Notes: a model not told the origin generated them from the letters alone. A stretch of 64,000 bases of DNA from Anaerolineae bacterium (GCA_030425205.1 JAUIAP010000016.1:55956-119955), one strand, 5' to 3'; positions 4,316 to 48,525 are shown, counted from the stretch's first letter. Program-made: numbers and translations.

Positions 4316-5584
4316 TTGCTAAACCGGATTGTCGCCCAACGTGATAGCCTTGCCTTCCTCATCGCCACGACATTGGCCTATGGATTGGACTATCTGTTTA
4401 ACGTCGTCAGCGGTCGCTGGCTGGGTAATGAACAGTTCGGCACGCTCGTCGCGTTGGCGGGGGTCGGACAGATTCTCGTCGTCGGCTCGCGCGTCATCCA
4501 GACTGTAACGACCCGCTACATCTCCCGTTTTCGCGCCGATACGCACGAGGAGAAGGTGCGCCCATTTATCACGGCGGCCCTGCGCGTGGGCATCTGGGGC
4601 GGGTTGGGGATCACCGTTTTATTGTGTCTGTTAGCCTTTCCATTGGCACGATTTTTGCGAATCGAGGATATGTGGGCTGTTTTTGCGCTGTTGGGCGGGG
4701 TGGGGCTGATGGTGGTTCGGCCGATTATCGGCGGAACGCTGCAAGGTCAGCAACGCTTTCTCCCGCTCGGCATCATTCAAATTATTCAGGCATCCATCCG
4801 TCTCCTAGCTGGCGCACTCTTAATTCTCGCGGGTTGGGGCGCATTTGGCGCGATGATCGCCCTGCCGATTGCCAGTCTGATTGCGCTCGTTTATGGCGCG
4901 TGGCTCCTGCGCGATCTGCTCGGCGGCACCAGCACTGTTTCCAATACCACCCCACTGCGCGAACTCGCCCACTACTCTGGCTACACGGCGGCGGGGCTGA
5001 TCGGATTCGCGCTGCTCATCAACATGGACGCCATTCTCGTCAAACGTTTCTTCGACGCGGACACGGCAGGCGTTTACGGTGCGGCCGTCACGTTGGGCAA
5101 AGTGGTGCAATTTTTTCCCGTTGCCATCATCATGGTCTTGTTTCCAAAAGCTGCCCATCGGCAGGCGACTAAACGCAACCCTGCCGCCGTTCTACCCCCT
5201 GCATTCGCCCTCATTACGGCAGTCTGTCTCGGTGTCTCGATTCTTTACTTCGCCTTTCCCGATCTACTGGTCGGCACAATCTTTGGCGACAAATTTGAGA
5301 TCAGCGGGCGGACACTTGGCACGCTTGGCCTTGCCATGTGGTTGCTTTCGCTCACAAACGTCTGGCTCAACTACTTTCTGTCGCTCAATCGCGTGCGTAT
5401 CGTCTATCTCATCTGGACGGGTGTCATCACGCAATACATCGCCTTCAACATCTGGCACGATCAGCTTTGGCATCTACCGACCGTCATGGCAATCAATGCG
5501 TTGTGGCTGACCGTTGCTGGTGCAATTCTATTTGTGCGATCAAGCAGGGAAGTCACTTCATTGCAAGAAACCCATGCACCCTAA
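4316..5584 (+). CDS. polysaccharide biosynthesis protein / oligosaccharide flippase (Wzx-like, MOP superfamily); TTG start
   Basis: 422 aa, ~12 predicted TM helices, N-terminal conserved stretch (..YGLDYLFNVVSGRWLGNEQFGTLVALAGVGQILVV..) characteristic of Wzx/PST family. ORF begins with TTG at 4316 preceded by GGGGG. Confidence 0.6.
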   Translation: MLNRIVAQRDSLAFLIATTLAYGLDYLFNVVSGRWLGNEQFGTLVALAGVGQILVVGSRVIQTVTTRYISRFRADTHEEKVRPFITAALRVGIWGGLGITVLLCLLAFPLARFLRIEDMWAVFALLGGVGLMVVRPIIGGTLQGQQRFLPLGIIQIIQASIRLLAGALLILAGWGAFGAMIALPIASLIALVYGAWLLRDLLGGTSTVSNTTPLRELAHYSGYTAAGLIGFALLINMDAILVKRFFDADTAGVYGAAVTLGKVVQFFPVAIIMVLFPKAAHRQATKRNPAAVLPPAFALITAVCLGVSILYFAFPDLLVGTIFGDKFEISGRTLGTLGLAMWLLSLTNVWLNYFLSLNRVRIVYLIWTGVITQYIAFNIWHDQLWHLPTVMAINALWLTVAGAILFVRSSREVTSLQETHAP

Positions 5585-6239
5585 ATTACTCTACTTCCGC
5601 CACAAACTGTTTCGCTATCGGCAAGTTGAACAAGACATTGCCCAACGACAGACATCGCTTTTGGACATTGGTTGCGGGGATGGCGAAAATATGCTGCGCT
5701 TTCAACAGGCGTCGCTTGAAAAAGTGGGGATTGAAGTGTCGTTTAGTCGGTTACAGACTGCCCAACGGCAGGGACTGGTCGTGCAGCAAGCGAGCGGAAC
5801 GGCGTTGCCATTTGCCGATGACAGCTTCGATATGCTCTACATCGCGCATGTGTTGCACCATGTTGCTGAATTCGACACGGTGCTGCGCGAAATTGAGCGC
5901 GTGGTTGTTGAGAATGGCGTGGTCTTCGTGGTGGAAACAGTGACCGATCACCCGCTGCTGCGTCTGGCGCGTTGGTTGCATCCCGTCTGGCAAGGGGATG
6001 AGGTCGAGGCAAATTGGCGTTACAGTCAGCTTTATGAGATGCTGACCGCACATAACTTTCGCGTCGAGCGCACAGAACGCTACAATGTACTCTTCTTTCT
6101 GTGGGAGATGTTACCGCTGGCATTTTGGCCGTTTGAAATTTTCACACCGCTGTTTGTTTATCTCGACCTATTCTTCGCTCGTTTCGCTCAGCGGTATTCA
6201 GCTCACTGCTATTTTGTTTTACGACGCACAAACACATGA
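5574..6239 (+). CDS. class I SAM-dependent methyltransferase (Methyltransf_11-like)
   Basis: Motif I LDIGCGDGENML, motif post-I, acidic motif (FADDSFDMLYIAHVLHHV). ORF track starts at 5514 but that overlaps flippase by 70 nt; internal ATG at 5574 (MHPKLLYF..) chosen. Stop TGA overlaps next start (ATGA at 6236-6239). Confidence 0.7.
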   Translation: MHPKLLYFRHKLFRYRQVEQDIAQRQTSLLDIGCGDGENMLRFQQASLEKVGIEVSFSRLQTAQRQGLVVQQASGTALPFADDSFDMLYIAHVLHHVAEFDTVLREIERVVVENGVVFVVETVTDHPLLRLARWLHPVWQGDEVEANWRYSQLYEMLTAHNFRVERTERYNVLFFLWEMLPLAFWPFEIFTPLFVYLDLFFARFAQRYSAHCYFVLRRTNT

Positions 6240-7915
6240 CCAAAATTGTACTCATTGCGCTGGATGGCGCGACATTGGATTTACTAAAACCGTGGATGGA
6301 CGCGGGTGAACTACCATTGCTGGCGCAAATCTTCGCAGAAGGTGCAGGCGGCACGCTCAACAGCACCATCCCATGGGCAACGCCAACCGCATTTGCATCG
6401 CTGGCAACCGGCACAAATCCGGGCAAACACGGCGTCTACGACTTTGGGACGCTGATTGGCGATGACTATACGGCGTTTGTGCCAACCAGTGGCGGAGATG
6501 TGCACGGTCGAACGTTGTGGGAACGGCTGTCCGACGCGGGGATCAGCTCGGCCGTCATCAACATGCCCATGACCTATCCCGCCCCAGCCATCGAAGGCAG
6601 TGTCATCGCGGGAATTCCCTACCCCAGCGGCAGCCCACAACTCTGTCATCCCCCTCATTTGCTAGATCGCCTTCAGCAAGAAGGCTGGGATTTGGCGCGC
6701 AATGCGTCTGATGATTTGGGCGGTAGTTATGCGGCGTATCTTGACGGACTGCTCGACCTTGTGCGCGTGCGGGGTGAGGCCACGGCGTGGTTGATCGCGC
6801 AAGATAATCCTGACTTTGTCGCCGTCCATTTTTTGGAAACAGATCAGGCACAACATCGCTTCTGGCAATTCATGGCGGGCGAGCCACGCTATGAACATGG
6901 CGGCGAATATACCGATGCGATTTTGCGCGTTTTCCAGCAAACGGAGTCGGCGATGCAGCAGATTATCAACGCAGCGGGGGAAGACGCGCTGATCTGTGTC
7001 ATGTCGGATCATGGATTTGGCGCCACCCGTCATCAAGTTTGGCTCAACAATTGGCTGTTGCAGAATGACTTTCTCGCGCTCAAGTCAAACATGGGCGTGC
7101 GTGTCAAACAACTGCTCTATCGGGCGGGATTGTCGCCAGCGGCGATTCGGGAGATGGCTCCCGAGCGACTCAAATTGGCGATCTTGCAGTTTTTTGAACA
7201 ACAAAAGGGGCGTGCGCTGGCGAGTCAGACGGAAGGGGGGGATGCGCCCGTCAAGCGCAAAGGGGTGATGGACTGGCTGACAGAACGCTTGGCAATCGAT
7301 TTTTATGATGTCGATTGGGCGCGGACAGTCGCATTTTCGACGGGGACAACGGCGGTGGGATATGTCTATTTGAACGTCGCTGGGCGCGATCCGCAGGGGG
7401 TGGTGAGCAGTCAGCAATATGCTGTGAAGAGGCAGCAGATTGCCGAAAAGTTGCGCGATTGGGAAGCGGTTGGGGAAGTGCTTTTGCGGGAAGAGGTGTG
7501 GAAGGGTTCGCAGTTGGAGCTTGCGCCCGATTTGGTGATTCGATGGGCAGCGGACACGACGGATGCACGTTATTTCCAGACGCGCTTTAGTAGTCATCAT
7601 CTGATGAAAGCGGTGCCAAATGATTATGCAAGCCATCGGCCGAATGGTCTGTTCGCCTTTTATGGCAACGGGGTCAAAACGGGAATGCTCAACGCTGAAC
7701 TGGTCGATTTGACGGCGACGCTGTTGTGGCTGTTCAAACAGCCTGTGCCGAGCGTGCTGGATGGACGGGTGTTGACCGACTGTTTTGTGGCCGAGCGCGC
7801 AGTTTTGGTTGTGGAAGAGGCGGAAGATTCGGCCGAAAAAAGCACAGGCGGATTTTCGGCCGATGATGACGCCTCTCTCAAAGAGGCGTTGCGGCGACTA
7901 GGCTATTTAGAGTAG
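6236..7915 (+). CDS. alkaline-phosphatase superfamily protein, type I phosphodiesterase / nucleotide pyrophosphatase (NPP) family
   Basis: N-terminal ..IVLIALDGATLDLL.. and ..IPWATPTAFASLATGTNPGKHGVYDF.. match the metal-binding/nucleophile region (TxPT..TG) of PF01663-type enzymes; C-terminal ..MSDHGFG.. His/Asp metal site. ATGA overlap with upstream methyltransferase indicates translational coupling. Confidence 0.65.
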   Translation: MTKIVLIALDGATLDLLKPWMDAGELPLLAQIFAEGAGGTLNSTIPWATPTAFASLATGTNPGKHGVYDFGTLIGDDYTAFVPTSGGDVHGRTLWERLSDAGISSAVINMPMTYPAPAIEGSVIAGIPYPSGSPQLCHPPHLLDRLQQEGWDLARNASDDLGGSYAAYLDGLLDLVRVRGEATAWLIAQDNPDFVAVHFLETDQAQHRFWQFMAGEPRYEHGGEYTDAILRVFQQTESAMQQIINAAGEDALICVMSDHGFGATRHQVWLNNWLLQNDFLALKSNMGVRVKQLLYRAGLSPAAIREMAPERLKLAILQFFEQQKGRALASQTEGGDAPVKRKGVMDWLTERLAIDFYDVDWARTVAFSTGTTAVGYVYLNVAGRDPQGVVSSQQYAVKRQQIAEKLRDWEAVGEVLLREEVWKGSQLELAPDLVIRWAADTTDARYFQTRFSSHHLMKAVPNDYASHRPNGLFAFYGNGVKTGMLNAELVDLTATLLWLFKQPVPSVLDGRVLTDCFVAERAVLVVEEAEDSAEKSTGGFSADDDASLKEALRRLGYLE

Positions 7916-7918
7916 ATA

Positions 7919-9868
7919 ATGCCCCAGCTCACCATTATCATCCCCACGATGAACGAAGCGGACAATATCGTGCCGCTCGTCACACGTTTGGCAGCCGCTG
8001 TTGCAGAGATCGACGCAGAGATTTTATTTGTCGATGATAGCAGCGATAAAACGCCCGACGTGATCGCAAGCGTGGCGGCAACGGCGGCGTTGCCTGTGCG
8101 CTGTATACATCGGCCGAAATCGCAACGGGACGGACTAAGTGGGGCGGTCGTTGTGGGGTTACGCGCCAGCACGGGTGATTATGTCTGCGTGATGGATGGG
8201 GATTTACAGCATCCGCCGAACGTCGTGCCGATTTTGCTGGAGCGAGCGGTGTTGAGTTCGGCCGATATTGTCGTCGCCAGCCGCCAGGCAAACCGCATTG
8301 GCCCCGTCGGGTTGCCACTGCCGCGCGCGCTCATCTCAAACACGCTCACCTTAATTGCGCGCTCCTGCTTCCCGCGCTCGCTCAAAGATGTTTCCGACCC
8401 GTTGACCGGCTTTTTCCTCGTGCGGCGGGCGGCCTTAGATATCGATCGCCTGCATCCCGACGGCTTCAAAATCCTGCTCGAAATTTTGGTGCGCCATCCC
8501 GATTTACGGGCGGGCGAACTGCTGTTTGACTTTGCGCTGCGTCATGCGGGCAGCAGCAAGGCAGATTTTCGCGAGGGGATGCGTTTCTTCCGCCATGTTT
8601 TGCGCCTGCGCACCACCGTTCACACCCGCCCGTTGTTGCGGTATGTGAGCGTCGTTTTTGCAGCCGCAATGGTCAAAGTGTTGGCGTTGTCGTTTTTGGC
8701 GCGGCGTAATTGGCGGCAAATCGTCGCTGTCTTTAGCGGTGCAATGGTTGGCGACTTTGTGGGTTGGGTTGGCAACCGAACCGTCGTTTTCCCCGATGAA
8801 AAATGGCGCACATTGCGGCGATTTTTGCGCGCCAGCACGCTCTTTAATGCGCTGGTATTTACCCCTGTCTTCGCCCTATTGCAGCGCATTCCCGCGCTGC
8901 GAACACGCCGACAAATCTCGGCGGCCCTGTCGATTGGCATCACGGGCTTTGTGCGCTATCTACTATCCGATCGCTGGATTGGCGCGAGTGGCTTGATGTC
9001 AGCCGAAGCGGTCAAAACGACCTATAGCATCCACGATAAGCTCGTCATTCAATCGCCTGTGCCGCTGCCCGATCTCGCCTACTTCCAGAGTGCGGCGCGC
9101 GAAATGACGGCCGACATCGTAATTCGCGTGGATCGGCATGGGACGCCGCGCAAGTTCGAGGATGGCGTTAGTTTTGATGACGGCATCGGCCGATTTGGGT
9201 TCGCATTCACCATCACCCCCGCAAAACAGATCGAAGTCGTTATTTCGCCCATTATCGCGCAGGCGCCACACGTTTTGTATGTCAACATCGTCGAGCCACT
9301 GTTGCGATACGCGGCGTTGCGCAAGGGGTTTGTCTTTGTTCAAGCTGGCGCGTACACGGATGGGCATGGTGCAGTTCTGGTGAGCAAGTCGGGGCGCAAC
9401 GCATCGGCGGCGGCGACGTTTGAGATATTGGGCAAGAATCCAGCAGCGCGTTATTTGGCCCATGATTCTGTGTTAATTGCGGCCGATGGGACGGTCTTTG
9501 CCTTTCCACATGCGCTGACAACGACGAAACTGCTCGAATCATCATGGCAGCGACGGCTGGGCGCATGGATGCGAAAACGACGCTCCTTGCCCGCGGCGAC
9601 GTTTAACGCCTATGTGCAGCGACTCTTTCCCCCGCTCCAGACGCCTGTCGAACAGGTCGCAACAATCGTTTCGTCCGCGCCACTCGTTGGGTATGCAGGG
9701 GCAGAAAACGACGCGGCCACCATTGCAAAAACAGTGCTACAAAATTCGGCCGATCCGCTCGGTTTCCCGCTCTTTTCGATGCTCGCCGACTACGAAGCCA
9801 CCGTGAACGATCACGACTTAGTTGCGGCAGAATGCGAACGATTAACACTTGCCTTGCAAAAGGCATAA
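7919..9868 (+). CDS. family 2 glycosyltransferase (Dpm1/polyprenyl-phosphate hexose synthase-like) fused to GtrA-like TM segment and ~300-aa C-terminal domain of unknown function
   Basis: N-terminus IIIPTMNEADNIVPLV..FVDDSSDKTPDV..VVASRQA.. = GT2 DXD/ED motifs typical of dolichyl/polyprenyl-phosphate mannose/glucose synthases; residues ~230-340 hydrophobic (4 TM); remaining 300 aa soluble, no recognisable motif. Start 4 nt after upstream stop. Confidence 0.6.
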   Translation: MPQLTIIIPTMNEADNIVPLVTRLAAAVAEIDAEILFVDDSSDKTPDVIASVAATAALPVRCIHRPKSQRDGLSGAVVVGLRASTGDYVCVMDGDLQHPPNVVPILLERAVLSSADIVVASRQANRIGPVGLPLPRALISNTLTLIARSCFPRSLKDVSDPLTGFFLVRRAALDIDRLHPDGFKILLEILVRHPDLRAGELLFDFALRHAGSSKADFREGMRFFRHVLRLRTTVHTRPLLRYVSVVFAAAMVKVLALSFLARRNWRQIVAVFSGAMVGDFVGWVGNRTVVFPDEKWRTLRRFLRASTLFNALVFTPVFALLQRIPALRTRRQISAALSIGITGFVRYLLSDRWIGASGLMSAEAVKTTYSIHDKLVIQSPVPLPDLAYFQSAAREMTADIVIRVDRHGTPRKFEDGVSFDDGIGRFGFAFTITPAKQIEVVISPIIAQAPHVLYVNIVEPLLRYAALRKGFVFVQAGAYTDGHGAVLVSKSGRNASAAATFEILGKNPAARYLAHDSVLIAADGTVFAFPHALTTTKLLESSWQRRLGAWMRKRRSLPAATFNAYVQRLFPPLQTPVEQVATIVSSAPLVGYAGAENDAATIAKTVLQNSADPLGFPLFSMLADYEATVNDHDLVAAECERLTLALQKA

Positions 9869-20492: not shown

Positions 20493-20746
20493 GGCCGTTT
20501 TTATACCATATTCGGTCGGGGGAAAACGAGTGATTGTCACGTTGATATAGGTGTAAGCTGTGATGCGCAAGGATTCTATGGGATATGAGTAGGAGCGCGA
20601 CCAGCTTGGTCACCAATCAAACAAGCGACCAAGCTGATCGCGCTCCCAGAAACATATCTGCCTGCACGATTTTGCACCATTTCTCGATCACCTATTGACT
20701 TAGTGTATTTTCTACACTATAATAGTTAGTGTAATCGAGACACGAA

Positions 20747-21814
20747 ATGTTAAATCTATTCAACAACTACCTACTCAAGCTGCGACAGGCAGCACAACCA
20801 GAAGACGTGTTTGGCAGATTGTCCGCCCCGCAAGCAGAATGTTTGCGCGAGTTGTATAGGGACATGGTGATCGAACTGCATCCCGACCACAATCAACTGC
20901 GCGTCGCAGAGGCGACGGAAGCGTTTAAGCTGCTACAAGAGTGGCACGAGGCGGCCAAGATCAAGGTGGCGGCTGGGACGTATGGCACAGAGCCAACGCT
21001 TGAGGTTTCTTCACGCCGACATCACTATGTCAGCGCAAAACCAGCCATCGCAGGTGATTTGAGTGATGTTTTTACGGCGCGTGCGGATGGTAAGCGCAAG
21101 GTTGTTGTGAAGGTGGTGCGCCATCCAAAAAACAATGACCTACTGCTGGCGGAAGCGACTGCGCTACGTGAGCTGCATGAGCATCTCGACCGCACGCCGC
21201 TACGCGCACATTTCCCCGTCCTAATCGAGACATTTCGTCTCAAAGATGAAAGCGGTGCAGAACGCCAGACAAACGTGTTGCGCCATGAGGCGGAGGTGTT
21301 TTCACTGGCCGACGTGCGGAAAAAGTATCCAGACGGGATTGATCCGGCGGATGCGGCGTGGATGTTCAATCGCATGATTGCGGCATTGGGCAAGACACAT
21401 GAGGTCGGGTTGGTGCATGGGGCGATTGTGCCGGAGCATGTGTTGATTCGGCCGAAAGATCACAACGGCATCCTGATCGACTGGTGTTACAGCGTGCGTT
21501 CAGGTGAACAGATCAAGGCGATCAGCCCATCCCGCAAGGCGTTCTACCCGCCCGAAGTGTTGCAAAAGTTAGCGGCAACACCCGCTACAGACTTATTTAT
21601 GGCGGCGCAATGTATGATCGAGATTCTCGGCGGCGATGTGGCAACGGGGCAACTGCCATCCAGTGTGCCGAAGCCAATTGCAGCCCTGCTACGTGCGTGT
21701 TTGATTCCTGCGCCGAAGCGACGTTATCAAAACGCCTGGCATATTTTTGACGATTTCAAAGAGATTTTAGAACGGCTTTATGGTGAACCTACGTTCAGGT
21801 CGTTCACGATGTAG
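20747..21814 (+). CDS. J-domain (DnaJ-like, HPD motif) fused to protein-kinase-like domain lacking catalytic Asp (predicted pseudokinase)
   Basis: N-terminus ..FGRLSAPQAECLRELYRDMVIELHPDHN..EAFKLLQEWHEA = J-domain helices II/III with HPD; then kinase-like lobe: VVVKVVRHPK (beta3 Lys), LLAEATALRELHE (alphaC Glu), LVHGAIVPEHVLI (HRD replaced by HGA), LIDWCYS (DFG replaced by DWC). Confidence 0.55.
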   Translation: MLNLFNNYLLKLRQAAQPEDVFGRLSAPQAECLRELYRDMVIELHPDHNQLRVAEATEAFKLLQEWHEAAKIKVAAGTYGTEPTLEVSSRRHHYVSAKPAIAGDLSDVFTARADGKRKVVVKVVRHPKNNDLLLAEATALRELHEHLDRTPLRAHFPVLIETFRLKDESGAERQTNVLRHEAEVFSLADVRKKYPDGIDPADAAWMFNRMIAALGKTHEVGLVHGAIVPEHVLIRPKDHNGILIDWCYSVRSGEQIKAISPSRKAFYPPEVLQKLAATPATDLFMAAQCMIEILGGDVATGQLPSSVPKPIAALLRACLIPAPKRRYQNAWHIFDDFKEILERLYGEPTFRSFTM

Positions 21815-21857
21815 TGTGGCAATGGGCAAAAACCCATTCAACAATAAGGAGCATATC

Positions 21858-22850
21858 ATGGGTTATTCAAAATGGAGCAATGCAGCATTCGATTCACGCC
21901 AAACAGACCGTAAGCGCACTGGCACAACGGCGTTCAAGTATGACAAACACGTGCGCCAAACAGGGGTTGTCAAGATCCACCCCGACATGGATCCGTATGG
22001 CAAAACGCGGGAGAGTCGCGACAGCGACGACCATCCCGAATCAGTATCAATCGCCGTCCTGTTTGACGTGACGGGTTCGATGGGACAGGTTCCGCGCGTC
22101 ATGCAAACAAAACTCGGCGCACTGATGCGTGTGCTGATCCAAAAGGGGTATCTCGAACATCCACAAGTGCTGTTTGGCGGTATTGGCGATGCCTATTGCG
22201 ACCGTGTGCCATTGCAAATCGGGCAGTTTGAGTCAGGTCTTGAGATGGACGACGATCTCGGCAAAATTTTCATCGAAGGTGGCGGCGGCGGTCAGGTATA
22301 CGAGAGCTATGAGCTTGGCGTGTACTTTATGGCGAAGCACACGTCGATCGATTGCTGGGAAAAGCGCGGCAAGAAAGGATATCTGTTCACGATTGGGGAC
22401 GAAAAGCCGTATGACGTCGTGCGCAAGGAGCAGATTGAGAAGCACATTGGGGACAAGGTGCGTGGGAATGTCGATTCGGCCGAAATTTTCAACGAGGCCC
22501 AGAAAATGTACGAACATTTCCACATCATTCCAACCAACACCGCACACGGCAAAAACCCCGCCATCCATGAGCATTGGCGCAAATACATGGGTGAGCGCGT
22601 GCTGATCTTGGACGACGAAACGGCCGTCTGCGAAACGATTGCGCTCGCCATCGCCCTCTGTGAAGGCACCATCGACGATCTGTACAGTGGAGTCGATGAT
22701 CTGGTCAGCGCAGGCTATGACGCGACAGCGACAAAGGCGGCAACGTCTGCCCTCAAGCCATACGCTACACGGCGTGAAGGGTCTCTCGTCAAAGTAGTCG
22801 CAGGTAAATTGAAAGCGGCTGTCGCTGGCGGCGACGACGGACGACTTTAG
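21858..22850 (+). CDS. von Willebrand factor type A (vWA) domain protein with intact MIDAS motif
   Basis: ATG at 21858 preceded by AGGAG; VLFDVTGSMG (DxSxS MIDAS), downstream conserved Thr/Asp positions, ~330 aa; 44 nt after kinase-like gene stop. Confidence 0.6.
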   Translation: MGYSKWSNAAFDSRQTDRKRTGTTAFKYDKHVRQTGVVKIHPDMDPYGKTRESRDSDDHPESVSIAVLFDVTGSMGQVPRVMQTKLGALMRVLIQKGYLEHPQVLFGGIGDAYCDRVPLQIGQFESGLEMDDDLGKIFIEGGGGGQVYESYELGVYFMAKHTSIDCWEKRGKKGYLFTIGDEKPYDVVRKEQIEKHIGDKVRGNVDSAEIFNEAQKMYEHFHIIPTNTAHGKNPAIHEHWRKYMGERVLILDDETAVCETIALAIALCEGTIDDLYSGVDDLVSAGYDATATKAATSALKPYATRREGSLVKVVAGKLKAAVAGGDDGRL

Positions 22851-22914
22851 TTAGCAACAGTTTGCAGTGGACAGCCCCAAAACTGTTCACTGCAAGCTGA
22901 TCACTTGGTAAATC

Positions 22915-24243
22915 ATGCGACAAGCTATTCTAACCACCGATCTCGGCTTTGGTGACGCGGGTAAAGGGGCGATCACCGACTATCTGACACGCCAGCACAA
23001 CGCACACACTGTCGTGCGCTTCAACGGCGGCGCGCAGGCGGGGCATCGCGTTGTGACCGATAGCGGTGAACACGTCTTTTCCCAATTTGGCAGCGGCACG
23101 TTGGCAGGGGCGCGCACCCATCTTTCACGCTTTATGCTTGTCGAACCGTTGGCCATGCTAGCCGAAGCAGAACATTTACAGGAGCTAGGTATTCGTGATC
23201 CGTTTGGCATGACAACAATTGATGAACGCGCATTGGTGACAACACCGTTTCAGCGCGCGGTCAATCGGTTGAAAGAGCTGGCGCGCGGCGACGGGCGGCA
23301 CGGCAGCTGCGGGATGGGGATTGGCGAGACGATGGTCGATTGGCTGGCACATGGGGGGGATGTCCTCTATTGTGGCGACTTTTCCACCCCTACCCAACTC
23401 AAAGCCAAATTGCGCCATCTTCAGGCTGTCAACCAAGTCAAAGCGGCCACGCTGCGCGATCAACTCCCCGACACGCCACAGGCGCAACAGGAATGGGATT
23501 GTCTGCACGATCCCAACGCCGTAGACCGCATCATTGTGGCCTATGCCCCCTTTATTGAACTTGCGCATGTCGTTCCCAGCGACTACCTGCACCTTTTGCT
23601 TGGGCGTGATGGCACGATCATTTTTGAACCAGCCCAAGGAGTGCTGCTCGATGAGTGGTACGGGTTTCATCCGTATACGACGTGGAGCACAACCACATTG
23701 GCAAATGCAGAAACATTGCTACACGAAGCGGATTACAAGGGTAAAGTTGTGCGCATCGGCATCACGCGCGCCTACACCCCGCGACATGGCGCGGGCCCCT
23801 TGCCAACGGAAGGTGCCCAATTGACAGCACTACTGCCCGATGCACGCAATGGCTTTGATGCATGGCAGGAAGGGTTTCGAGTTGGCTGGCTCGATCTGGT
23901 GTTGTTGCGCTATGCGCTAAGCGTCGTCGGCAAGCTCGACGGGCTGGCCGTGACCTGTTTGGATCGCGTTGTGGGGTTGCCCGAGTTGAAGATTTGTACG
24001 AGTTATCGGGGGAGTGGCGAGATCGAAAAGTGGCAAGGGACAGTGGGAATTTCGGCCGAAAACGCCATTCTCGCCCATCAATCCCAATTAACCGCCGACC
24101 TCCTGCAAAGCCAACCCAACTTGCAGACGATCGATTCGGCCGAAACGCTATTAACAACTATCGAACGAGAGACAGGACTCGACGTGCTGATTGAAGGGTG
24201 GGGTGCGGCAGCGGATGCAAAGCGGAAAAGAGAAGGCGCGTAA
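22915..24243 (+). CDS. adenylosuccinate synthetase (PurA)-family ligase, divergent paralog
   Basis: 442 aa, PurA length; GFGDAGKGAITDYL (vs canonical GAQWGDEGKGKIVD: second Lys of GKGK lost), NGGAQAGHRVV (vs QGGHNAGHT), FSQFGSG (vs LIPSG), CGMGIGET (vs TGRGIGPAYEDK). Fold-level match to PurA but key signature deviations. Confidence 0.55.
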   Translation: MRQAILTTDLGFGDAGKGAITDYLTRQHNAHTVVRFNGGAQAGHRVVTDSGEHVFSQFGSGTLAGARTHLSRFMLVEPLAMLAEAEHLQELGIRDPFGMTTIDERALVTTPFQRAVNRLKELARGDGRHGSCGMGIGETMVDWLAHGGDVLYCGDFSTPTQLKAKLRHLQAVNQVKAATLRDQLPDTPQAQQEWDCLHDPNAVDRIIVAYAPFIELAHVVPSDYLHLLLGRDGTIIFEPAQGVLLDEWYGFHPYTTWSTTTLANAETLLHEADYKGKVVRIGITRAYTPRHGAGPLPTEGAQLTALLPDARNGFDAWQEGFRVGWLDLVLLRYALSVVGKLDGLAVTCLDRVVGLPELKICTSYRGSGEIEKWQGTVGISAENAILAHQSQLTADLLQSQPNLQTIDSAETLLTTIERETGLDVLIEGWGAAADAKRKREGA

Positions 24244-38404: not shown

Positions 38405-41400
38405 TTACGGCGATTCGACGATCACAATTTCGGAAGCAGATCGGCCGAAAACCTCTGGCGAATACATCTCTTCTGCCTTTGCTGGGGGAACAACAAACAC
38501 ACCCGGCGTTGTCGCACGTGCCACAAATTCATATTCATGGACACCCGCGTAGAGCAGCGTCGTAAACGCTTCGGCGCGTTCGTCGCGCAGGTTGACGTGG
38601 TCATACCAACGCCACCACCACCAGTAGTTTGGTTCATCCTCATCGTTGGGTGCGTCTGGGACAGCGACCGTATTTGCCAACCCCTCGTTGATGATTTCCA
38701 AGCCAGCGGGGAGTGGCGAAACCAGTGCCACGTGCGTGCGGCGGCTGTCTGCCACCATCGTCAGCTTGACGCGCACTTTCGCGCCAGCCTTGATGTGCCA
38801 GTTACCATCTTCATCTTGCGTCACGTCGGCTGGGTCATCGACCGCCTCATATTCGCGCAGCACGATGAAGCCACGATCGAGCGGATCGAGTGCCAAATCA
38901 CTCGGCGCATAGCGTAAGCCCAAGCGATAGTACAGTCGTCCGGCACCCTCTTTGCTGATGATGACGTTTTGTGCATCGGCCGAATCAGCGAGGAAGGTCA
39001 ACGGCACATCCGTCGCGTGGCGGTCTGTCGTGCGACCTTCGTAGACGTGTTCGGCCGCATACGTCTCACCTAGCCATACTCGCGCCACAAAATCGGGGGT
39101 CTGTGCCTCAAACGTCTCGAAGTAGCGATCCATCGCCAGCAGAATAAAGACGTTTTCCTGCGTGTTGTGCCAGCGTCCGCGCGTTTTGTCGGCGAGCAAG
39201 CCGTTGACCACCTTCACGATTAGGTCGCTATCGGGGTCGTTGGCGATCAGCGCATCGAGGATCACGCCATCGGTACGGCGATTGCTGTGCATGATGACAT
39301 AGGCATCATCGCTGTATTCGGTCGTGAAGGTGGCTGCATTGGCCGTTTCGACGGCACGGTTCTCGAAGTAGCGGCTGATTTCGGCCGATTCCGTTCCCTC
39401 ACTGCCAATCACCTGCCAAACCCATGCCAACGCCTCTGGGGCCAGCCCATCTGCACCGTTACGGTTGTAAAGTGCAAGTGCTTCGTCGCGGTCATTGTCG
39501 CCGCTCAAATCACGTACATACAGCGCATAGGCGCGAATCGTGTTCTTAATGTCTTCACTGTACCAGCTTGGGAAGTGGCTATCGACGTTCTCCAAATAGT
39601 TGAGCGCACGACTGAGCATATCGGCCGGCACGTCGTAGCCGTTCATCTGGGCGCGCACAAGTGCGTGGGTGACGTGTGCCGTCAGGAACGGATAGGAGGT
39701 GCGATTGCTCGACCACCAGCGGAAACCGCCGTCACTCGTTTGCAGTCGCGCAATCCCTTCGATGTCAGCCCGTACTTGCGCTTCGATCTCTGCTTGTTCG
39801 GGCATCCCGTCCGCATCAAACGCGCTCAACACGTCTTGCAACGCGGCGATGGCGAGAATGCGCGAGCCACGTGCTTCGCTGCTCTCATAGGGATAATCGA
39901 CCAAGTAGAGAACGGCATCGGTCAACGCTTGCAGCGCGGTCGACGAGGTGTCAATTTCTAAGCCGCCAAACTGTGTATACACGCCCTCTGGCACGGCAAC
40001 CGTTTGGGCAATTGCGCCCTCATCGATCACGCCATAGGTGGCGAACGCTTCCGTCGTTGCGGGCGTGTAGACGGGCAAATCGATATTGGCTGCATCCGCA
40101 TAGTCGCCAGAAACGGCGGCAAATTGGAAGCGGGCCAAGCCCGGCTGGTCGGTGGTCGTTGGGAAGCGCACCTCGATGCGGTCATTGGCGGGAACGGTGA
40201 CACGTTGGCCGTTGCCTTCTGTCAGCGCAACGTTTGTTGCCGTGACGACGACATCGACGACCATATCTTCGTCAGTCTGGTTTTGCAGAACGACGGGCAG
40301 TTCAAAGCTATCCCCAAAGTTGAGGAAGCGCGGTGCAGATGGGCGCACCATCAGCGGTAGACGGGCCGTGAGATTGCTTTCGGCCGATCCAAACAGCTTC
40401 TCGCCGCTGACAGCAACCGCCATAATCCGATAGCGTGTCAAGTTGTCAGGCAACGTCACCTCAACGCTGGCGTTGCCGTTGCCATCGGTCGTGACCGTCG
40501 GCGCAAACAACGCGAGGGCATCAAAGTTAGTGCGAACCTGAATCGGGTCTTGATTATTACCGCTTGTGGCCTCATCGGCGGCCACTTGAGTTGCCATTGG
40601 CGCAGGTGCACTGTTCAAATTAGCACCATCATCAGCACTATCAAACGCCATAGACTCTTCCATCACCTCCCCTTCAGTGGCCCCACCAACCGCACTGCGA
40701 GCAACATCTTGGACGGCGTTCCCCGCCAATTGGGTCGGGTCGACCAAGACGAGTTGGGCGCGGCTGTGCGACCCTTGCAGGTAGGTGTAGCGATTTTGAT
40801 AGATGGCGTTGAGTGGATTGACGAGCTGATAGTTTGTCAATGCCAGCACCGCTTCATCGACAACGACAAGCGCGATTTCTGAGTTGGTGACAGGATTGCC
40901 ATTGGCATCGGTCACGGTCAAATCAATCGTGGTGCTGCCGCCGGGTTCAAGCCCTGTCTCTTGCGGCTTGAGTTCGATGTCGAGCTCACGGCTGCGCGTC
41001 GAGATGGGCAGTTCGATGCTGCCGACCGCATAGGCGGGGCGAGCTGGTGCGTCGGGCAAGGGTGTGCCGTCGTCCAGCGTGCGCGGCTGTGCGCCCACAA
41101 GATCGATCTGCACGTTGATATTGGGCAAATACACCTCTTCGATAGGGATTTCGATGATGGTCGTGTCTCCTTCCATCGTGAAGCGTTCGGTTGAAACGAT
41201 GCCCTGTCGCGTCAGCGTGAGCAGCCCTTCCGCGTTTGGAATCGGTGACTGCACCAAAATTTCAGCGACATCGCCGGGTGCAAATGTCTCTTGGCTAGGA
41301 ATCAACGTGACTTGTTCTTGTTCGACGTTGCGATTCGGCCGATTGTCGCCACCACTGACCCAGCGTGTAATTTCGCTTTCATTACCACGCCCTTGCGCGT

Positions 41401-44400
41401 CGGTGATGGTCGCCGTGATGCGATATTGTCCGCCTTCTTCCGTCGTGAAGGTGCAGATGACCGCTTCAGCACCAGAGGTCACGTTGCAAGTTTGCACGTC
41501 GGCCTCTGTCTGTTGCCAGCGTCCACTGCTAAACGTCCATTCGAGCCGTGCCGCTTGCAGCGTAATCGGCGTGTTTGCAACGGCATTGCCGTCGATGTCT
41601 GTGACAATCGCCTCAATGTCGAGCGGTGTGCCTTGGCGGACAAAGTAGCGGTCGCTGCGTAAGCCCACATAAAGATCGGCGGGATGGACGAGCAGACTGG
41701 TGCTTGCACCCCAGCCTTGTCGGTTTACATCGATCACTTCGGCCGATGCTTCTACGCTATATGGTCGATTGGCTTCAAATTCGTCAAAGTCGATTCGCAA
41801 ATAGTGGTCGCCACTCGCGTCGGTGCGTCCTTCAAAGCTCTCATAGCTGCTCTCATTGCCTTCATAGTAGAAAGAATCATCATACCAGCCCCACCATGGC
41901 GTCCATTTGCCGAAGCTGAAATCGCTCCAGTTGGGTGGTGAGTAGGTGGTTGGATTGCTGTAGACGTTCCAGTAGACTTCGGCGTTGGGCAGTGCGCCGC
42001 CCGCGAAGTATTCGGCCGTAACACCCACAACCGCATGACCACCAATAAAGTGTGGCGATGGGGTCTCATTGCGTGCCGTTACCTCAAACTCTGGACGACG
42101 GAACTCTTGGATTTGGAATTGATGATAGTAGCTGCCATTTGGCATCCGAAATTCGATGTTGGCATAGCCGAGATTGACATCTTCGGGCAGATCAATGGTT
42201 AAATCGAAGCCGCCGAGAGTGGATAGTTCAACTGAACCAGTCGATAACTCATTCCCTTGTGACCCACGCACAGTATAGTTGATCGTCTGTGCGTCATCCC
42301 ACAGCGCAATGTCACCCAATGCGCCCGGTTCAACTCTGCGAACAAACCCCTTAACGCTCATTGTCTCGCCGGGACGATACATGGCGCGGTCATCAAAGAT
42401 GACCCAGCGCACCTCGCCGACATTGCGTTCGTTGTACCATTCCCCATACCCATATTCATTGGCAGGTAGCAGGGCGATGTCGTCGCCACTTTGAACGGTC
42501 AGATAGTTCACGCCGTCGGGGAAGTCAGAGATGCGAATTGTGCCATCGGCCGATGTTGTCGCCGATTGACCCTGAAACTGTACGGTCGCATCCGCTATCG
42601 ATGCGCCATCGCTCAACTGATTCGCCCAAACGATCATCTCCCCATTGCCCAATAGTGCATCCACGCCGATGTCCGTCACTTGCACCCAATGGGTGACAAC
42701 CGGGCGATAGCGATTGGTAAAGCGATCGATCAATCCTTCCGTTGGGGTAACGCGGATGATCGCGTGTCCATGCTCGCCATTGAGGGCTGCGCTCAGGTCG
42801 ATTGGTGTGACGGTTAGTTTGTCGTCTTCGCCGTCAACGCTGACGGTTTCATCAAAGACAAGTTCACCGGGTGGCGAGGGTGGATTATCGCGGTATGCAT
42901 TTTGCTGATACCTTAAGAACGCTTCCCAATCAGCGAGCGAAACCTTGTAAACCTGCACGTCAATATTTGGCACATTGATCGAATAGACGCTAATGGCTGG
43001 ATTGGGAGCGGCGGGATCGAGCGTGACAAGCGGCTTGTTCGCGCCGAAAAGGGTGGGTTCGGCCGAATCAATATCCTGCTCAAACTCATAATCGGCGCCC
43101 ATCGTCTGCCCAAAAATGTCCTGAATTTCGCCACTGAGACGAACCGTATAGGTTGAACGAGGCTGCCATGCGCCGCGAATGCTCATATAGTTGCCATAAA
43201 CACCGACAATTGCGTTCGGGATTTCTGGCTCAATCGTCACCCAATTGATGTCAAACAGTTGTGGATCGAGTGGGTTGGTAAATTCGATGCTGACTTCGCC
43301 ATAGGGGGGGCAGTTCCCGCCGTAGCCACAGCGTGTCTCGCGGACGGCCAGTGGTGGATAGGTTTGGGTTGAATAGGAAAATGTCTGGTCGCTTGTGCGT
43401 GCGCCTTCCAACGATGGCACGTTGGGGCCGATCTGGATGCTAATTGAAGTATCTGGTTGGAAGGGGTCAACGGCGCGGAATGCCACCCAACGATTATCGG
43501 GATGATTTTCTGCCAGTCCGTTGATGCGCTCATCGGCCGAAATTTCTTCCGCTGTTGCCAAGCGCAGCGCAACCTCGTTGCCACCTGCCGTCACCGTCGT
43601 CACGTCCAAAATAGCGGCCGGGTCAACGCGCTGGTCAAAGCCTGCAAAGAAGATCGGTTCCAGCGGTTGCGAACCGTCTTGTGGATAAAATGTTTGGATT
43701 TGTGGGGTCGGCGTGCGGAAAGAGAATGAAACCGTCTCTTGCAATGTCCCACCCGTTTCAGAGGTTGTTCCCGCAGGAATCTCGATTGTCACTTCGGTGG
43801 ACATCGGCAGGCGGTCGATTTGATCGGAAGCAAACTCGAAGCGTGCCGTCTGGGTTCCTAACCAAATCCACTCACCGGGCAGGTTGGGGGTCATGACCAT
43901 CGGCACATCCATTGCGGCAAGCTGATCTTGCGTCGCAATTGGCACCATCGGCTGATTAAATGTGACGGCAATAAACGGCGCAATCGTCACATCTCCCTCT
44001 GGAGCAAAACGAATCACTTCGAGATCACCGTCATTGTTGACCACTTCAACGGGTGGCGGCGCGAGTTCACCGGGGGCAGGGAACTGCTCATTGATCGTCT
44101 CACCCGTCAGTGGGGGTGGAATCAGCTGGGTTGGCAAATTAAGCTCAACTTGATCACTCGCCTCGCGCTGCAATTGGGGTAGGCGGGCGAGGATTTGGGC
44201 GATCACTTCAGATGGCAGACCTTCCCCTTGCACGACCTGATTTAGGATTGGCGCACTGTCCGCTTCGGGATTTCCCGCGCTCAGGCGCATACCAAAACGC
44301 GGCTGATTGCCTAGCTCGGCCGCCGCAAATGGATCGACCTGTAAAATCATGCCACTCTCTCCTGTTTGACTGGTTGTGTTGCCGCCATCTGGAACAGGCG

Positions 44401-44509: not shown

Positions 44510-44888
44510 TTCGTCTCCGTTAGTATGAATGGACATTCGTCCACTCAACATTTGATAATTATACAGGCGCGACGATCAAAATAAGACCGCCGCGCCACCC
44601 TGAAGGGTCTGGCTTTAGATATAACGGAGGCGGCGTGCGATTTGTTCCACAATTGATGGGATTGGTTTTGGCGCGTTTGGCATCATGCGGTGCAGTCGAC
44701 CTGTGTCTTACCCATTTGCCCTTGATCTGTGGATAAGGTGTGGATTTTTTGTGAGTAAGCTGTTGAAGGCGACTCATAATTCATTAAGGTTTTACTTTGG
44801 TGCGTGTGGTGCAAACAAAATGGGCGCGTCTCCGTTGCGGAAACGCGCCCATTCGTCATTTAATCATGCCCCAACTCAGGACGTTCGA

Positions 44889-48371: not shown

Positions 48372-48525
48372 GGGGGAGTTCCCATTGGAAAATTTACCAA
48401 TACCTGCAAACATCTATCACTCCTACGCTCTGATAGCGCATGAAATCTGTTCTGTTGTTTGGGGTGTAATTTGAAGCGTTCACACCACCGATTACTGTAA
48501 CGAATGCTAGTGTAGTACTCTGATC

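Follow-up and report, generated by a model that had tools for sequence, protein, structure and literature searches.

A vWA-linked subfamily of PurA-like enzymes with a replaced aspartate site and a predicted tie to NAD+ and ADP-ribose metabolism

Analysis of a 64-kb window (the whole stretch of Anaerolineae DNA that was examined, 64,000 nucleotides) revealed a divergent gene of the PurA superfamily that lies with a vWA-fold gene and a J-domain kinase-like gene in one operon-like cluster (20747..24243, + strand; Table 1). This gene is very probably not the housekeeping purA, and its membership of a vWA-linked module is held with the same high confidence. We predict, with a probability of roughly 55%, that its product is a ligase that uses GTP, joins a new nucleophile to a new acceptor, and is controlled through NrtR by ADP-ribose and tied to NAD+/ADP-ribose metabolism; any specific chemistry assigned to it would be doubtful at best. 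The combination of a rebuilt PurA copy, a constant vWA partner, an apparent switch that senses NAD breakdown and a wide spread suggests that a pathway related to nucleotides or NAD has yet to be described. No published description of the vWA/PurA-like/J-pseudokinase module was found in the literature searched.

Table 1. Features of the module and its upstream region (positions counted from the first nucleotide of the window)
Feature	Position	Strand	Basis or remark
Promoter-like site TTGACT-17 nt-TATAAT	20695..20723	+	11/12 consensus positions, consensus match only
Candidate NrtR-type operator 1, 21-bp palindrome TTAGTGT-N7-ACACTAt	20700..20720	.	motif search
Candidate NrtR-type operator 2, TTAGTGTAATCGAGACACgAA	20726..20746	.	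ends directly before the ATG of the first gene
J domain (HPD) fused to a protein-kinase-like domain, HGA instead of the catalytic HRD aspartate	20747..21814	+	
vWA-fold protein, MIDAS-like D-x-T-x-S motif (DVTGSM)	21858..22850	+	fold search
PurA-superfamily enzyme, vWA-linked subfamily	22915..24243	+	intact reading frame, 442 aa
P-loop GDAGKGA (E. coli G12-K18)	22951..22971	+	alignment to E. coli PurA
GGAQAGHR (E. coli GGHNAGHT)	23026..23049	+	alignment to E. coli PurA
SCGMGIGET loop (E. coli TTGRGIGPA, second PurA signature)	23305..23331	+	alignment
FDAWQEGFR in place of the aspartate-binding loop (E. coli FGATTGRRRR)	23854..23880	+	alignment
TCLD (E. coli TKLD, guanine-specificity motif)	23953..23964	+	alignment

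The ORF matched the Pfam family PF00709 (Adenylsucc_synt) over residues 11-432 (E = 1.7e-63, 215 bits) and is a true, divergent PurA homologue; a chance match is excluded. Its scores against the NCBIfam PurA equivalogs were far below the cut-offs (169 versus 402 bits for NF002223, 135 versus 395 bits for TIGR00184). With a family HMM from which the window protein had been left out, this protein reached 614 bits, compared with 208-236 bits for canonical PurAs, and an HMM of canonical PurA gave 744-795 bits for canonical PurAs and 144 bits for the window protein. The subfamily was monophyletic in 99/100 bootstraps of a neighbour-joining tree, apart from canonical PurA and from PurZ, to which its mean identity was 27% and 22%, respectively. 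An AF2 model of the protein (pLDDT 83) matched solved long PurAs in Foldseek with TM scores of 0.72-0.79 at 22-26% identity. A motif search of the window identified no second PurA motif or homologue. Public databases label members of the subfamily adenylosuccinate synthase. The copies on plasmids and phages argue indirectly for an accessory paralog, as do the hosts Streptomyces, Rhodococcus, Massilia and Variovorax, which would be expected to carry a standard purA. The protein belongs to a large subfamily of the PurA superfamily, uncharacterised until now, which is probably no longer an IMP:aspartate ligase.

Residues were compared across 86 diverse members using E. coli PurA numbering; the C-terminal sequence of E. 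coli PurA was verified against the Acinetobacter and Listeria PurAs. Both classic PurA signatures, QWGDEGKGK and GIGPxYxxKxxR, are broken in the window protein, which carries GFGDAGKGA and GIGETMVDWLAH at these sites. Within the P-loop, Glu14 and Lys18 are replaced by Ala, and Asp13 and Lys16 are kept (D14 and K17 of the window protein). The second motif has His37 replaced by Ala, Asn38 by Gln and Thr42 by Arg, and retains His41 (window H44). The degenerate P-loop and the retained Asp13, Lys16 and His41 had been described in the first-pass annotation and were confirmed. The loss of Lys18 is family-wide and Asn38 is Gln in 83/86 members. Among the 85 members having position 14, it is Ala in 52, Glu in 21, Ser in 8 and Cys in 3; because Glu14 persists in 21/85 members (about 25%), its change is a lineage feature and not the defining one, and the P-loop loses the diagnostic value that had been given to it.

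The substrate contacts are altered throughout the family. The aspartate loop carries Trp at T300, Gln at T301 and Phe at R305, with R303 deleted, and T301, G302, R303, R305 and R306 are kept in the four canonical PurAs compared (4/4). The IMP 5'-phosphate ligands Asn38, Thr129, Thr239 and Arg143 are represented in the window protein by Gln38, Cys129 and Thr239, with no Arg143; at position 143, alternative alignments place Gly or His here, and most of the family has Asp or Glu. Thr129 is replaced by Cys in 85/86 members and Pro135 by Glu in 83/86, and S240W and V273H are further changes of the IMP site relative to PurA. Residues kept from PurA include Asp13, Lys16, His41 and Gln224, which are invariant wherever the position is present (85-86/86, window protein included), together with an invariant Thr239, a conserved Arg272 and Asp333 (85/86). 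Of the other two guanine-specificity residues, Lys331 is Cys in the window protein, and the family as a whole has His, Cys or Asn there; Ser414 persists in 74/86 members, with Gly in the window protein. The replacements Gln38, Cys129, Glu135, Trp240, His273, Trp300, Gln301 and Phe305, with the absence of R303, are as conserved as the retained residues. We therefore propose, as a provisional subfamily signature, Gln38, Cys129, Glu135, Trp240, His273, Gln301, a deleted R303 and a hydrophobic residue at 305; the window protein has them all (as Q41, C132, E138, W257, H291, Q318 and F321). The marks that define the subfamily are the loss of the aspartate loop and the rebuilt contacts to the IMP 5'-phosphate and ribose, combined with kept phosphotransfer residues and, in part, kept guanine-recognition residues. 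The subfamily is heterogeneous, since the Vibrio and Rhizobium phage members retain several PurA residues (Glu14 and Thr42 in both, Asn38 and Thr129 also in the Vibrio member).

The first-pass annotation had read the gene as a neofunctionalised paralog with substrates that may be other than IMP and aspartate. This reading is supported by the equivalog scores, by carriage on plasmids and phages, by the placement in a separate clade and not within canonical PurA, and by the alignment to PurA and PurZ, in which the aspartate-loop residues and most IMP 5'-phosphate ligands are gone; the argument from the P-loop on which it had been based does not hold.

The vWA protein was identified by fold search alone, with no sequence match in Pfam, NCBIfam, PADLOC or PDB. 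Its N-terminal Met-Gly is invariant and its gene starts at the ATG at 21858; an in-frame ATG upstream, at 21780, is not the true start. Linkage was counted only in loci with enough upstream sequence, with an adjacency criterion of 1.5 kb and inspection of exceptions; a criterion of 700 nt from the best HSP end undercounts owing to partial HSPs. A vWA homologue was present within about 4 kb of the PurA-like gene, nearly always directly upstream, in 57/57 genomic and 75/75 viral loci, and the vWA protein is the obligatory genomic partner of the PurA-like enzyme. A homologue of the J-domain protein lies upstream of this pair in 40/57 genome and 55/75 viral loci. Its matches to Pfam DnaJ and Pkinase were under their cut-offs, 30 homologues share its HPD and HGA motifs, and the sequence suggests that it is probably a pseudokinase or an atypical kinase. 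Its J domain implies recruitment of Hsp70. Both proteins probably serve the enzyme as obligatory subunits, as substrate presenters or as regulators. A fusion of a PurA-like protein to Peptidase_S51 (P0099) was considered as a source of an ammonia-donor domain and rejected, being a single cluster with no S51 gene in the other loci. The longer members P0095, P0230 and P0238 have low-complexity extensions only and no partner fusions.

The region upstream of the cluster contains a promoter-like site 24 nt 5' of the first gene. No equally strong promoter-like site (three 9/12 matches) and no + strand terminator-like site were found between 20747 and 24243. The first of two candidate NrtR-type operators overlaps the -35/-10 spacer and the -10 box. 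These two were the only matches to the operator in the window at one mismatch or fewer, compared with 0.01 expected, and they agree with the published NrtR operator, a 21-bp palindrome with a GT-N7-AC core (PMC2330246). Across all loci, TTAGTGT-N7-ACACTAA gave 75 matches compared with 7 in shuffled sequences; nearly all of the matches immediately precede the module or, within the same loci, nrtR or nadM-nadV. The same operator precedes the cluster in other Chloroflexota and in other phyla. An NrtR gene (Nudix plus NrtR_WHD) adjoins the module in 31/68 bacterial and metagenomic loci, and also in Massilia; a gene annotated 'NUDIX hydrolase' lies 3' of the module in the Rhodococcus plasmid locus, and the 64-kb window itself contains no nrtR gene. 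The operators imply control of the module by ADP-ribose, such that a build-up of ADP-ribose, i.e. consumption of NAD+, would derepress it. We consider NrtR/ADP-ribose control together with an NAD-related role, a link drawn from genomic context, reasonably probable. The operator by itself is no proof of an NAD role, because regulators of the NrtR family also govern pentose utilisation in some lineages (PMC2330246). The context of greatest weight, namely the vWA gene, the J-domain pseudokinase gene and the operators of NrtR type, was absent from the first-pass annotation.

The subfamily is widespread. More than 6900 clusters at 90% identity were found among the scored candidates, and at least 150 clusters at 50% identity scored above 320 bits. 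Lineages with members include Chloroflexota, Saccharibacteria and other CPR, Actinomycetota, Burkholderiales and Gemmatales, with megaplasmid carriage in Rhodococcus, Variovorax, Tsukamurella and Agrobacterium. Identity across Chloroflexota classes is 57-60%. Among viruses, members occur in 202 records of cluster C mycobacteriophages, in phages of Vibrio and Rhizobium with genomes near 200 kb, and on at least 540 IMG/VR contigs, some of which may be bacterial despite their 'viral' label. In the window the module neighbours RecJ, FMN dehydrogenase and LepA. Two 2048-aa ORFs of the window were considered as a duplication, which was rejected as the proteins are unrelated.

Genes of NAD metabolism accompany the module in a minority of loci. 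NadV/NadM adjacency was seen in 5 genome loci and 9 viral loci, and NadV, NadM-Nudix and ADP-ribosylglycohydrolase adjoin the module in CPR loci. NadV lies within 8 kb of the module in 9/80 viral loci, compared with NadV-like genes anywhere in 4% of phage genomes, and Rhizobium phage TM61 carries PRTase-like and NMNAT/Nudix genes 3-4 kb from the module. In the Bixzunavirus QBert the module lies directly 3' of the polynucleotide kinase gene. The same slot in the sister Myrnavirus ScoobyDoobyDoo holds a Prs-like PRTase, an AAA ATPase and a Nampt-like gene, a set that has the NARP1 architecture, and each genome lacks the module of the other. It may be, however, that accessory cargo of any kind tends to collect at the right end of cluster C phage genomes. 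From position and regulation alone, we infer that the module may be functionally equivalent to NARP1. NARP3 (PnuC plus NadR) is unrelated.

The kept P-loop glycines, Asp13, Lys16, His41, Gln224, Thr239, Arg272 and Asp333 make it likely that the enzyme shares the PurA-type mechanism. GTP would then phosphorylate an oxygen of the acceptor and a nitrogen nucleophile would displace the phosphate, with both acceptor and nucleophile probably other than IMP and aspartate and with a new pocket that would be aromatic and not cationic. The module would serve NAD+/ADP-ribose metabolism, and large phages would carry it for the same end as the known NAD+ reconstitution pathways. The boldest version of this proposal, which we regard as a long shot, is that the module is a new pathway of NAD+ reconstitution or ADP-ribose recycling, NrtR-controlled in bacteria and deployed by large phages against NAD+-depleting immunity, in which the two-step PurA-like chemistry would act on new substrates to rebuild NAD+ or NMN. 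The gamma-phosphate of GTP would be transferred to the anomeric 1''-OH of ADP-ribose (or of ribose 5-phosphate), the ring nitrogen of nicotinamide, held in the Trp/Phe/His pocket that replaces the aspartate site, would displace it, and NAD+ (or NMN) would be rebuilt within a single active site. Run backwards, the reaction that RES-domain toxins catalyse as NAD+ phosphorylases would correspond to this displacement step.

The simplest explanation for the conservation of Asp13, Gln224 and His41 is a 6-oxopurine acceptor, for which NAD salvage offers no obvious place. The enzyme might accordingly aminate a 6-oxopurine nucleotide or nucleoside (IMP, GMP, XMP, inosine or a hypoxanthine dinucleotide) with ammonia or another amine in place of aspartate, and so restore adenine-nucleotide pools, e.g. 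after deamination or when NAD+ resynthesis needs ATP. This would be the smallest departure from known PurA chemistry; the residues that act on the lactam (Asp13, His41, Gln224 and Lys16) and Thr239 are invariant, rebuilding is confined to the aspartate and phosphate/ribose sites, and NrtR control would fit if adenylate supply limits NAD+ synthesis. However, we consider it unlikely: no glutaminase or other ammonia-donor partner is conserved, the Peptidase_S51 fusion being isolated; the loss of Arg143, often to Asp or Glu, speaks against a 5'-phosphate at its old position; and neither the vWA partner nor the NARP1-like positional exchange is explained.

Another interpretation, decidedly unlikely in our judgement, is that of a conflict or signalling system without any NAD-synthetic role. 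Here the pseudokinase and Hsp70 would control the PurA-like protein, whose role would be that of a GTP-dependent switch or effector: it could modify nucleotides to toxic effect, synthesise a nucleotide signal, or act as a GTPase that inserts a metal or cofactor together with the vWA-MIDAS protein. Phage copies would act in counter-defence or superinfection exclusion. The new invariant Cys129, His273 and Glu135 could make a metal site, the distribution is patchy and mobile, and the kinase domain weakly matches defence kinases. Against this, PADLOC matched neither the PurA-like nor the vWA protein, inheritance appears vertical and conservation is high across Chloroflexota classes, unlike in typical defence islands, the regulator is a metabolic repressor, and the neighbours in this window are ordinary housekeeping genes.

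That the gene encodes an ordinary adenylosuccinate synthetase, an orthologous PurA with lineage drift that uses IMP, aspartate and GTP, is very improbable: the clear PF00709 homology and PurA fold, the retained catalytic Asp13, Lys16, His41 and Gln224, the public annotation and the absence of another PurA homologue from the window are outweighed by the low equivalog scores, the loss or deletion of T301, R303 and R305, the replacement of N38, T129 and R143, the separate clade, the patchy spread across phyla with carriage by megaplasmids and lytic phages, and the obligatory vWA linkage.

The likeness to PurZ suggested by the first-pass annotation was not borne out, and a PurZ-type enzyme, condensing dGMP (or GMP) with aspartate as the first step to 2-aminoadenine (Z-base), is scarcely credible here. 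A precedent for a PurA paralog that is carried by phages and has been repurposed does exist in PurZ (PMC12884076), and RefSeq names the phage homologues '2-aminooxy adenylosuccinate synthetase'. However, the PurZ model NF038379 scored 27 bits against a cut-off of 300, over residues 8-56 only, tblastn against a PurZ phage gave only E = 0.03, and PurZ/PurZ0 ranked last among the Foldseek matches of PurA fold (TM 0.48-0.58, 14-16% identity), behind the long-form PurAs. PurZ is of the short archaeal-type form, takes ATP or dATP as cosubstrate, has the companions datZ, mazZ and dpoZ, and still uses aspartate although its Asp13 is changed to Ser (PMC12884076). The subfamily has Asp at this position in 85/85 members and lacks the aspartate-binding T301, R303 and R305 (E. 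coli PurA numbering) that PurZ chemistry needs, and neither the surroundings of the gene in the window nor those in related loci contained datZ, mazZ or dpoZ. The purZ locus of Bm1, by contrast, has a DNA polymerase and a dATP triphosphohydrolase next to purZ, and its PurZ has Ser at position 13.

The preferred reading, a GTP-dependent ligase tied to NAD+/ADP-ribose metabolism, bears on annotation first. Thousands of bacterial, megaplasmid and large-phage genes labelled adenylosuccinate synthetase belong to a subfamily that, because its aspartate site is gone, should be unable to make adenylosuccinate, and any metabolic reconstruction built on this label would be wrong, as would the calling of such viral genes as 'auxiliary purine genes'. 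The subfamily would be the second case, after PurZ, of a rebuilt PurA scaffold, with the nucleophile site replaced and not the base specificity. It comes with two unstudied partners (an unannotated vWA/MIDAS family and a J-domain pseudokinase) and with a regulatory handle in the NrtR operators. If the NAD link is true, a widespread component of NAD+/ADP-ribose homeostasis would have gone unnoticed until now, and the module would also be a candidate phage countermeasure to NAD+-depleting defence.

Compared with known systems, the enzyme has the fold and long-form architecture (~430-440 aa) of E. coli PurA (EC 6.3.4.4; PDB 1CG0/1ADE). PurZ/PurZ0 are likewise phage-carried PurA-superfamily paralogs of altered substrate specificity; the present subfamily differs in its long form (442 aa here), its invariant Asp13, its missing aspartate site and its retained guanine-specificity Asp. 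Modules that combine a vWA protein with a kinase include the TerY-type vWA/kinase/phosphatase triads and archaeal ArnA/ArnB with the ArnC/D kinases. The likeness to these was compared at the level of fold; here a J domain is joined to a kinase-like domain devoid of the HRD aspartate, a PP2C phosphatase is missing, and a PurA-fold enzyme is the third component. With the NrtR regulon, the module loci share the operator, nrtR adjacency and an operator before nadM-nadV. The module is not a described member of that regulon, unless it equals the 'nrtX-nrtY' of Rodionov et al. 2008 (PMC2330246); no match to Proteus or Hahella was seen among the top 120 proteobacterial relatives. The published Roseiflexus NrtR regulon comprises pncA, pncB and nadCAB only, and bacterial prs-nadV pairs are members of NrtR regulons (PMC2330246). 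NARP1 (Adps plus Namat) is unrelated to the vWA/PurA-like module in sequence and fold, consisting of a Prs-like pyrophosphokinase and a Nampt-like transferase with no vWA or J-domain partner. The two would nevertheless share a logic in which an oxygen is activated by NTP phosphate(s) and a nitrogen nucleophile then displaces them, and both are phage-borne, with exchange at the same slot between sister mycobacteriophage genera.

The PurA-like gene encodes a protein of 442 amino acids covered end to end by the Pfam Adenylsucc_synt domain (215 bits, E = 1.7e-63). Scores against the NCBIfam PurA equivalogs were 169 and 135 bits, compared with cut-offs of 402 and 395, and the protein is not a canonical PurA. 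An HMM of its family (the vWA-linked PurA subfamily), built without the window protein, gave 614 bits for this protein and 208-236 bits for canonical PurAs; a canonical PurA HMM gave 144 and 744-795 bits, respectively, a clean split. Identity was 41% within the family and 27% against canonical PurA. Phylogenetic placement, suggested in the first-pass annotation, was run as a neighbor-joining tree rooted on PurZ; the family fell outside canonical PurA and was monophyletic in 99 of 100 bootstraps. The likeness to PurZ proposed in that annotation was rejected: the PurZ model gave 27 bits (cut-off 300), and the protein keeps Asp13 whereas PurZ carries Ser13 (PMC12884076), also confirmed in phage Bm1 PurZ. 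An AF2 model (pLDDT 83, pTM 0.86) gave TM scores of 0.72-0.79 with long bacterial and eukaryotic PurAs, compared with approximately 0.55 for archaeal PurA and 0.48-0.58 for PurZ/PurZ0. Phage homologues in RefSeq records, among them NC_054720.1, NC_021346.1 and NC_004687.1, and in PP083314.1, are labeled '2-aminooxy adenylosuccinate synthetase', a PurZ-type name; Asp13 is present in their sequences and the aspartate loop is missing, which makes this label very probably wrong. Phage annotators call such homologues 'PurA-like'.

Alignment with E. coli PurA, whose numbering is used here, located the altered signatures first noticed from sequence (GDAGKG and GGAQAGH), with Glu14 and Lys18 replaced by Ala and Asp13, Lys16 and His41 retained. 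Residues 9-350 of this reference sequence match the PDB alignment, and its C-terminal motifs match database-derived Acinetobacter and Listeria PurAs. Known functional positions were tabulated across 86 diverse relatives and E. coli PurA. This analysis revealed that G12, D13, G15, K16, G17, H41, G127, Q224, D229, T239, R272, G274, R306, D333 and G416 are invariant or almost so, and that S414 is retained in 74 of 86. Position 14 varies (Ala 52, Glu 21, Ser 8, Cys 3), so the Glu14 change, initially taken as the key feature, is secondary. Family-wide replacements were N38 to Q (83/86), T128 to S, T129 to C (85/86), P135 to E (83/86), S240 to W (83/86), V273 to H (86/86), T300 to W or another aromatic residue, T301 to Q (85/86), R305 to F (80/86), K18 to S/T/A, R143 to D/E/G and K331 to H/C/N; D231 became W in 71 of 86, and R303 was deleted in all 86. 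Four canonical PurAs in the same alignment frame have N38, T129, R143, V273, T301, R303 and R305. In E. coli AdSS structures, T300, T301, R303 and R305 bind aspartate (or hadacidin) and N38, T129, T239 and R143' bind the IMP 5'-phosphate. The expectation of altered substrate sites was supported, with the aspartate and ribose-phosphate sites replaced across the family. Read against these ligand roles, the residue table shows that the phosphotransfer machinery survives and suggests that guanine recognition does too; the nucleophile and ribose-phosphate sites have been remade as a Trp/Phe/His/Cys/Glu-lined pocket conserved as strongly as the original.

In distant Chloroflexota, too, the two upstream genes of the module stand ahead of the PurA-like gene. 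Among loci with enough upstream sequence, tblastn identified a vWA-partner homologue at 57/57 genome and 75/75 viral loci, nearly always directly upstream (in nine viral loci up to 4 kb away or directly downstream), establishing the vWA protein as an obligatory partner of the PurA-like enzyme. The J-domain kinase-like gene was present at 40/57 and 55/75 loci, respectively; its product joins a J domain, in which the HPD motif is conserved, to a kinase-like domain whose catalytic loop reads HGA, not HRD, in all 30 aligned homologues. Either of the two proteins could be a subunit, a substrate presenter or an Hsp70-dependent regulator. A full-text literature search found no account of a vWA/J-pseudokinase/PurA-like module; the enzyme belongs to the PurA superfamily, has had its nucleophile site replaced, and is part of an undescribed three-gene module.

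An invariant Met-Gly opens the vWA partner (28/28 aligned homologues and the phage copies), and a conserved G/S-x-W comes next; in the model, residues 1-7 are disordered. Once Met is removed, the exposed N-terminal Gly could matter for function, acting for instance as nucleophile or recognition element. In some cluster C1 phages (NC_054717.1, CharlieB; MK450422.1, RoMag; MZ958745.1, Pinkcreek; and others) the vWA match falls into two pieces separated by approximately 1.58 kb, and an HNH endonuclease is annotated beneath it, which suggests a homing-endonuclease or intron-like insertion. The vWA gene of MAG contig CAWHBS010000003.1 is broken by an in-frame stop and shifts frame over a short stretch; it is a pseudogene, or else the contig is misassembled there. 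Alternative upstream partners substitute for or join the J-domain kinase at some loci: a Band_7/SPFH protein in Massilia, and a protein of ~240 amino acids (homologues in five IMG/VR viral contigs) whose gene directly adjoins that of the vWA protein in the Vibrio phage but is separated from it by one short gene in the Rhizobium phage. In one metagenomic cluster, P0099 (698 aa), a Peptidase_S51 (class I amidotransferase-like) domain is fused to the PurA-like protein, an arrangement absent from every other locus. Elsewhere in the window lies a region rich in protease/antiprotease genes; its two 2048-aa ORFs are unrelated despite equal length, since one encodes a bacterial alpha-2-macroglobulin and the second a giant subtilase.

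Coordinates of features in the window and in fetched loci
Feature	Location	Positions	Remark
J-domain kinase-like gene, 355 aa	window	20747-21814 (+)	upstream of vWA partner gene
vWA partner gene, 330 aa	window	21858-22850 (+)	directly upstream of PurA-like gene
Met-Gly start	window	21858-21866	
PurA-like gene	window	22915-24243 (+)	
GDAGKG	window	from 22951	
GGAQAGH	window	from 23026	
2048-aa ORF	window	38405-44551 (-)	
Third large subtilase	window	44889-48413 (-)	PA14 domains; between the 2048-aa ORFs
2048-aa ORF	window	57834-63980 (-)	
Interrupted vWA gene	L009, MAG contig	8988-9833	
Band_7/SPFH protein	L157, Massilia rubra	5040-6017	alternative upstream partner
~240-aa protein	L071, Vibrio phage	7216-7935	Met/Gly-rich tail
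~240-aa protein	L072, Rhizobium phage	6636-7427	Met/Gly-rich tail
gp236	L164, phage QBert	33511-33813	

Matches were obtained for 6913 of 8000 scored candidate clusters; the best 120 of these were mostly from Chloroflexota (57-60% identity), and at least 150 clusters (50% identity) exceeded 320 bits. Named hosts included several Chloroflexota classes, Saccharibacteria, Kaiserbacteria, Cerribacteria, Streptomyces, Streptacidiphilus, Catenulispora, Herbidospora, Planobispora, Gordonia, Acidimicrobiia, Gemmatales and Burkholderiales (Massilia, Variovorax and Rhodoferax among them). Megaplasmid copies occur in Rhodococcus (including R. jostii RHA1), Variovorax, Tsukamurella and Agrobacterium vitis. 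Copies with 38-45% identity were found in 202 cluster C mycobacteriophage records, and the gene is also encoded by Vibrio and Rhizobium phages of ~200 kb and by at least 540 IMG/VR contigs, many of 100-490 kb. This patchy, mobile spread fits an accessory paralog.

De novo clustering of neighbors revealed one further recurrent gene, a Nudix and NrtR winged-helix regulator (Pfam PF21906). Of the 68 bacterial and metagenomic loci examined, 31 have this gene next to the module, and so does Massilia rubra; on a Rhodococcus plasmid the module is followed by a gene annotated 'NUDIX hydrolase'. NrtR operators are 21-bp palindromes built around a GT-N7-AC core, and ADP-ribose frees NrtR from DNA (Rodionov et al., PMC2330246). 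Upstream of the first gene of the window cluster, two 21-bp palindromes of the NrtR operator type (TTAGTGT-N7-ACACTAA) overlap and then follow a strong promoter-like site; they are the only matches in 64 kb at up to 1 mismatch (0.01 expected). Over all fetched loci the motif occurred 75 times, compared with 7 in shuffles, nearly always directly upstream of the module, or of nrtR or nadM-nadV at these loci. The unidentified regulon genes 'nrtX-nrtY' of the 2008 NrtR paper (PMC2330246, Table 1) might be the vWA/PurA-like pair. Five CPR-type loci carry the module together with NadV/Nampt, four of them also with NadM-Nudix; ADP-ribosylglycohydrolase was present in two of the five and in one further CPR locus. 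NadV lay within 8 kb of the module in 9/80 viral loci, with NadV-like genes in only 4% of phage genomes, and in Rhizobium phage TM61 PRTase-like and NMNAT/Nudix genes lie 3-4 kb from the module. We place the probability of a link between the module and NAD at about 0.6.

In the mechanism we propose, the PurA-like enzyme would still phosphorylate an acceptor oxygen with the gamma-phosphate of GTP, and a nitrogen nucleophile other than aspartate would then displace the phosphate; the acceptor would have no 5'-phosphate in the old position. Module expression would rise as ADP-ribose accumulates, and the product would feed NAD+/ADP-ribose metabolism. A more conservative activity, amination of a 6-oxopurine from another nitrogen donor, appears unlikely. 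Phosphorylation of ADP-ribose at O1'' with coupling to nicotinamide would account both for the aromatic character of the pocket and for the exchange with NARP1, a phage NAD+ reconstitution pathway; it is attractive but more doubtful still.

The exchange involves two sister genera of mycobacteriophages. In Bixzunavirus QBert the kinase/vWA/PurA-like module lies toward the right end of the genome, directly after a polynucleotide kinase gene. This phage also encodes gp236, a small protein annotated 'PnuC-like nicotinamide riboside transporter'; its gene, possibly another NAD-related one, is surrounded by glycosyltransferase genes. In Myrnavirus ScoobyDoobyDoo the genes directly after the orthologous polynucleotide kinase (61-62% identity) encode a Prs-like PRTase, an AAA ATPase and a Nampt-like protein. 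Whole-genome tblastn found neither ScoobyDoobyDoo's module in QBert nor QBert's in ScoobyDoobyDoo. NARP1 comprises a Prs-like and Nampt-like pair that rebuilds NAD+ from ADP-ribose and nicotinamide; the ScoobyDoobyDoo gene set at the position of the QBert module thus has a NARP1-like architecture.
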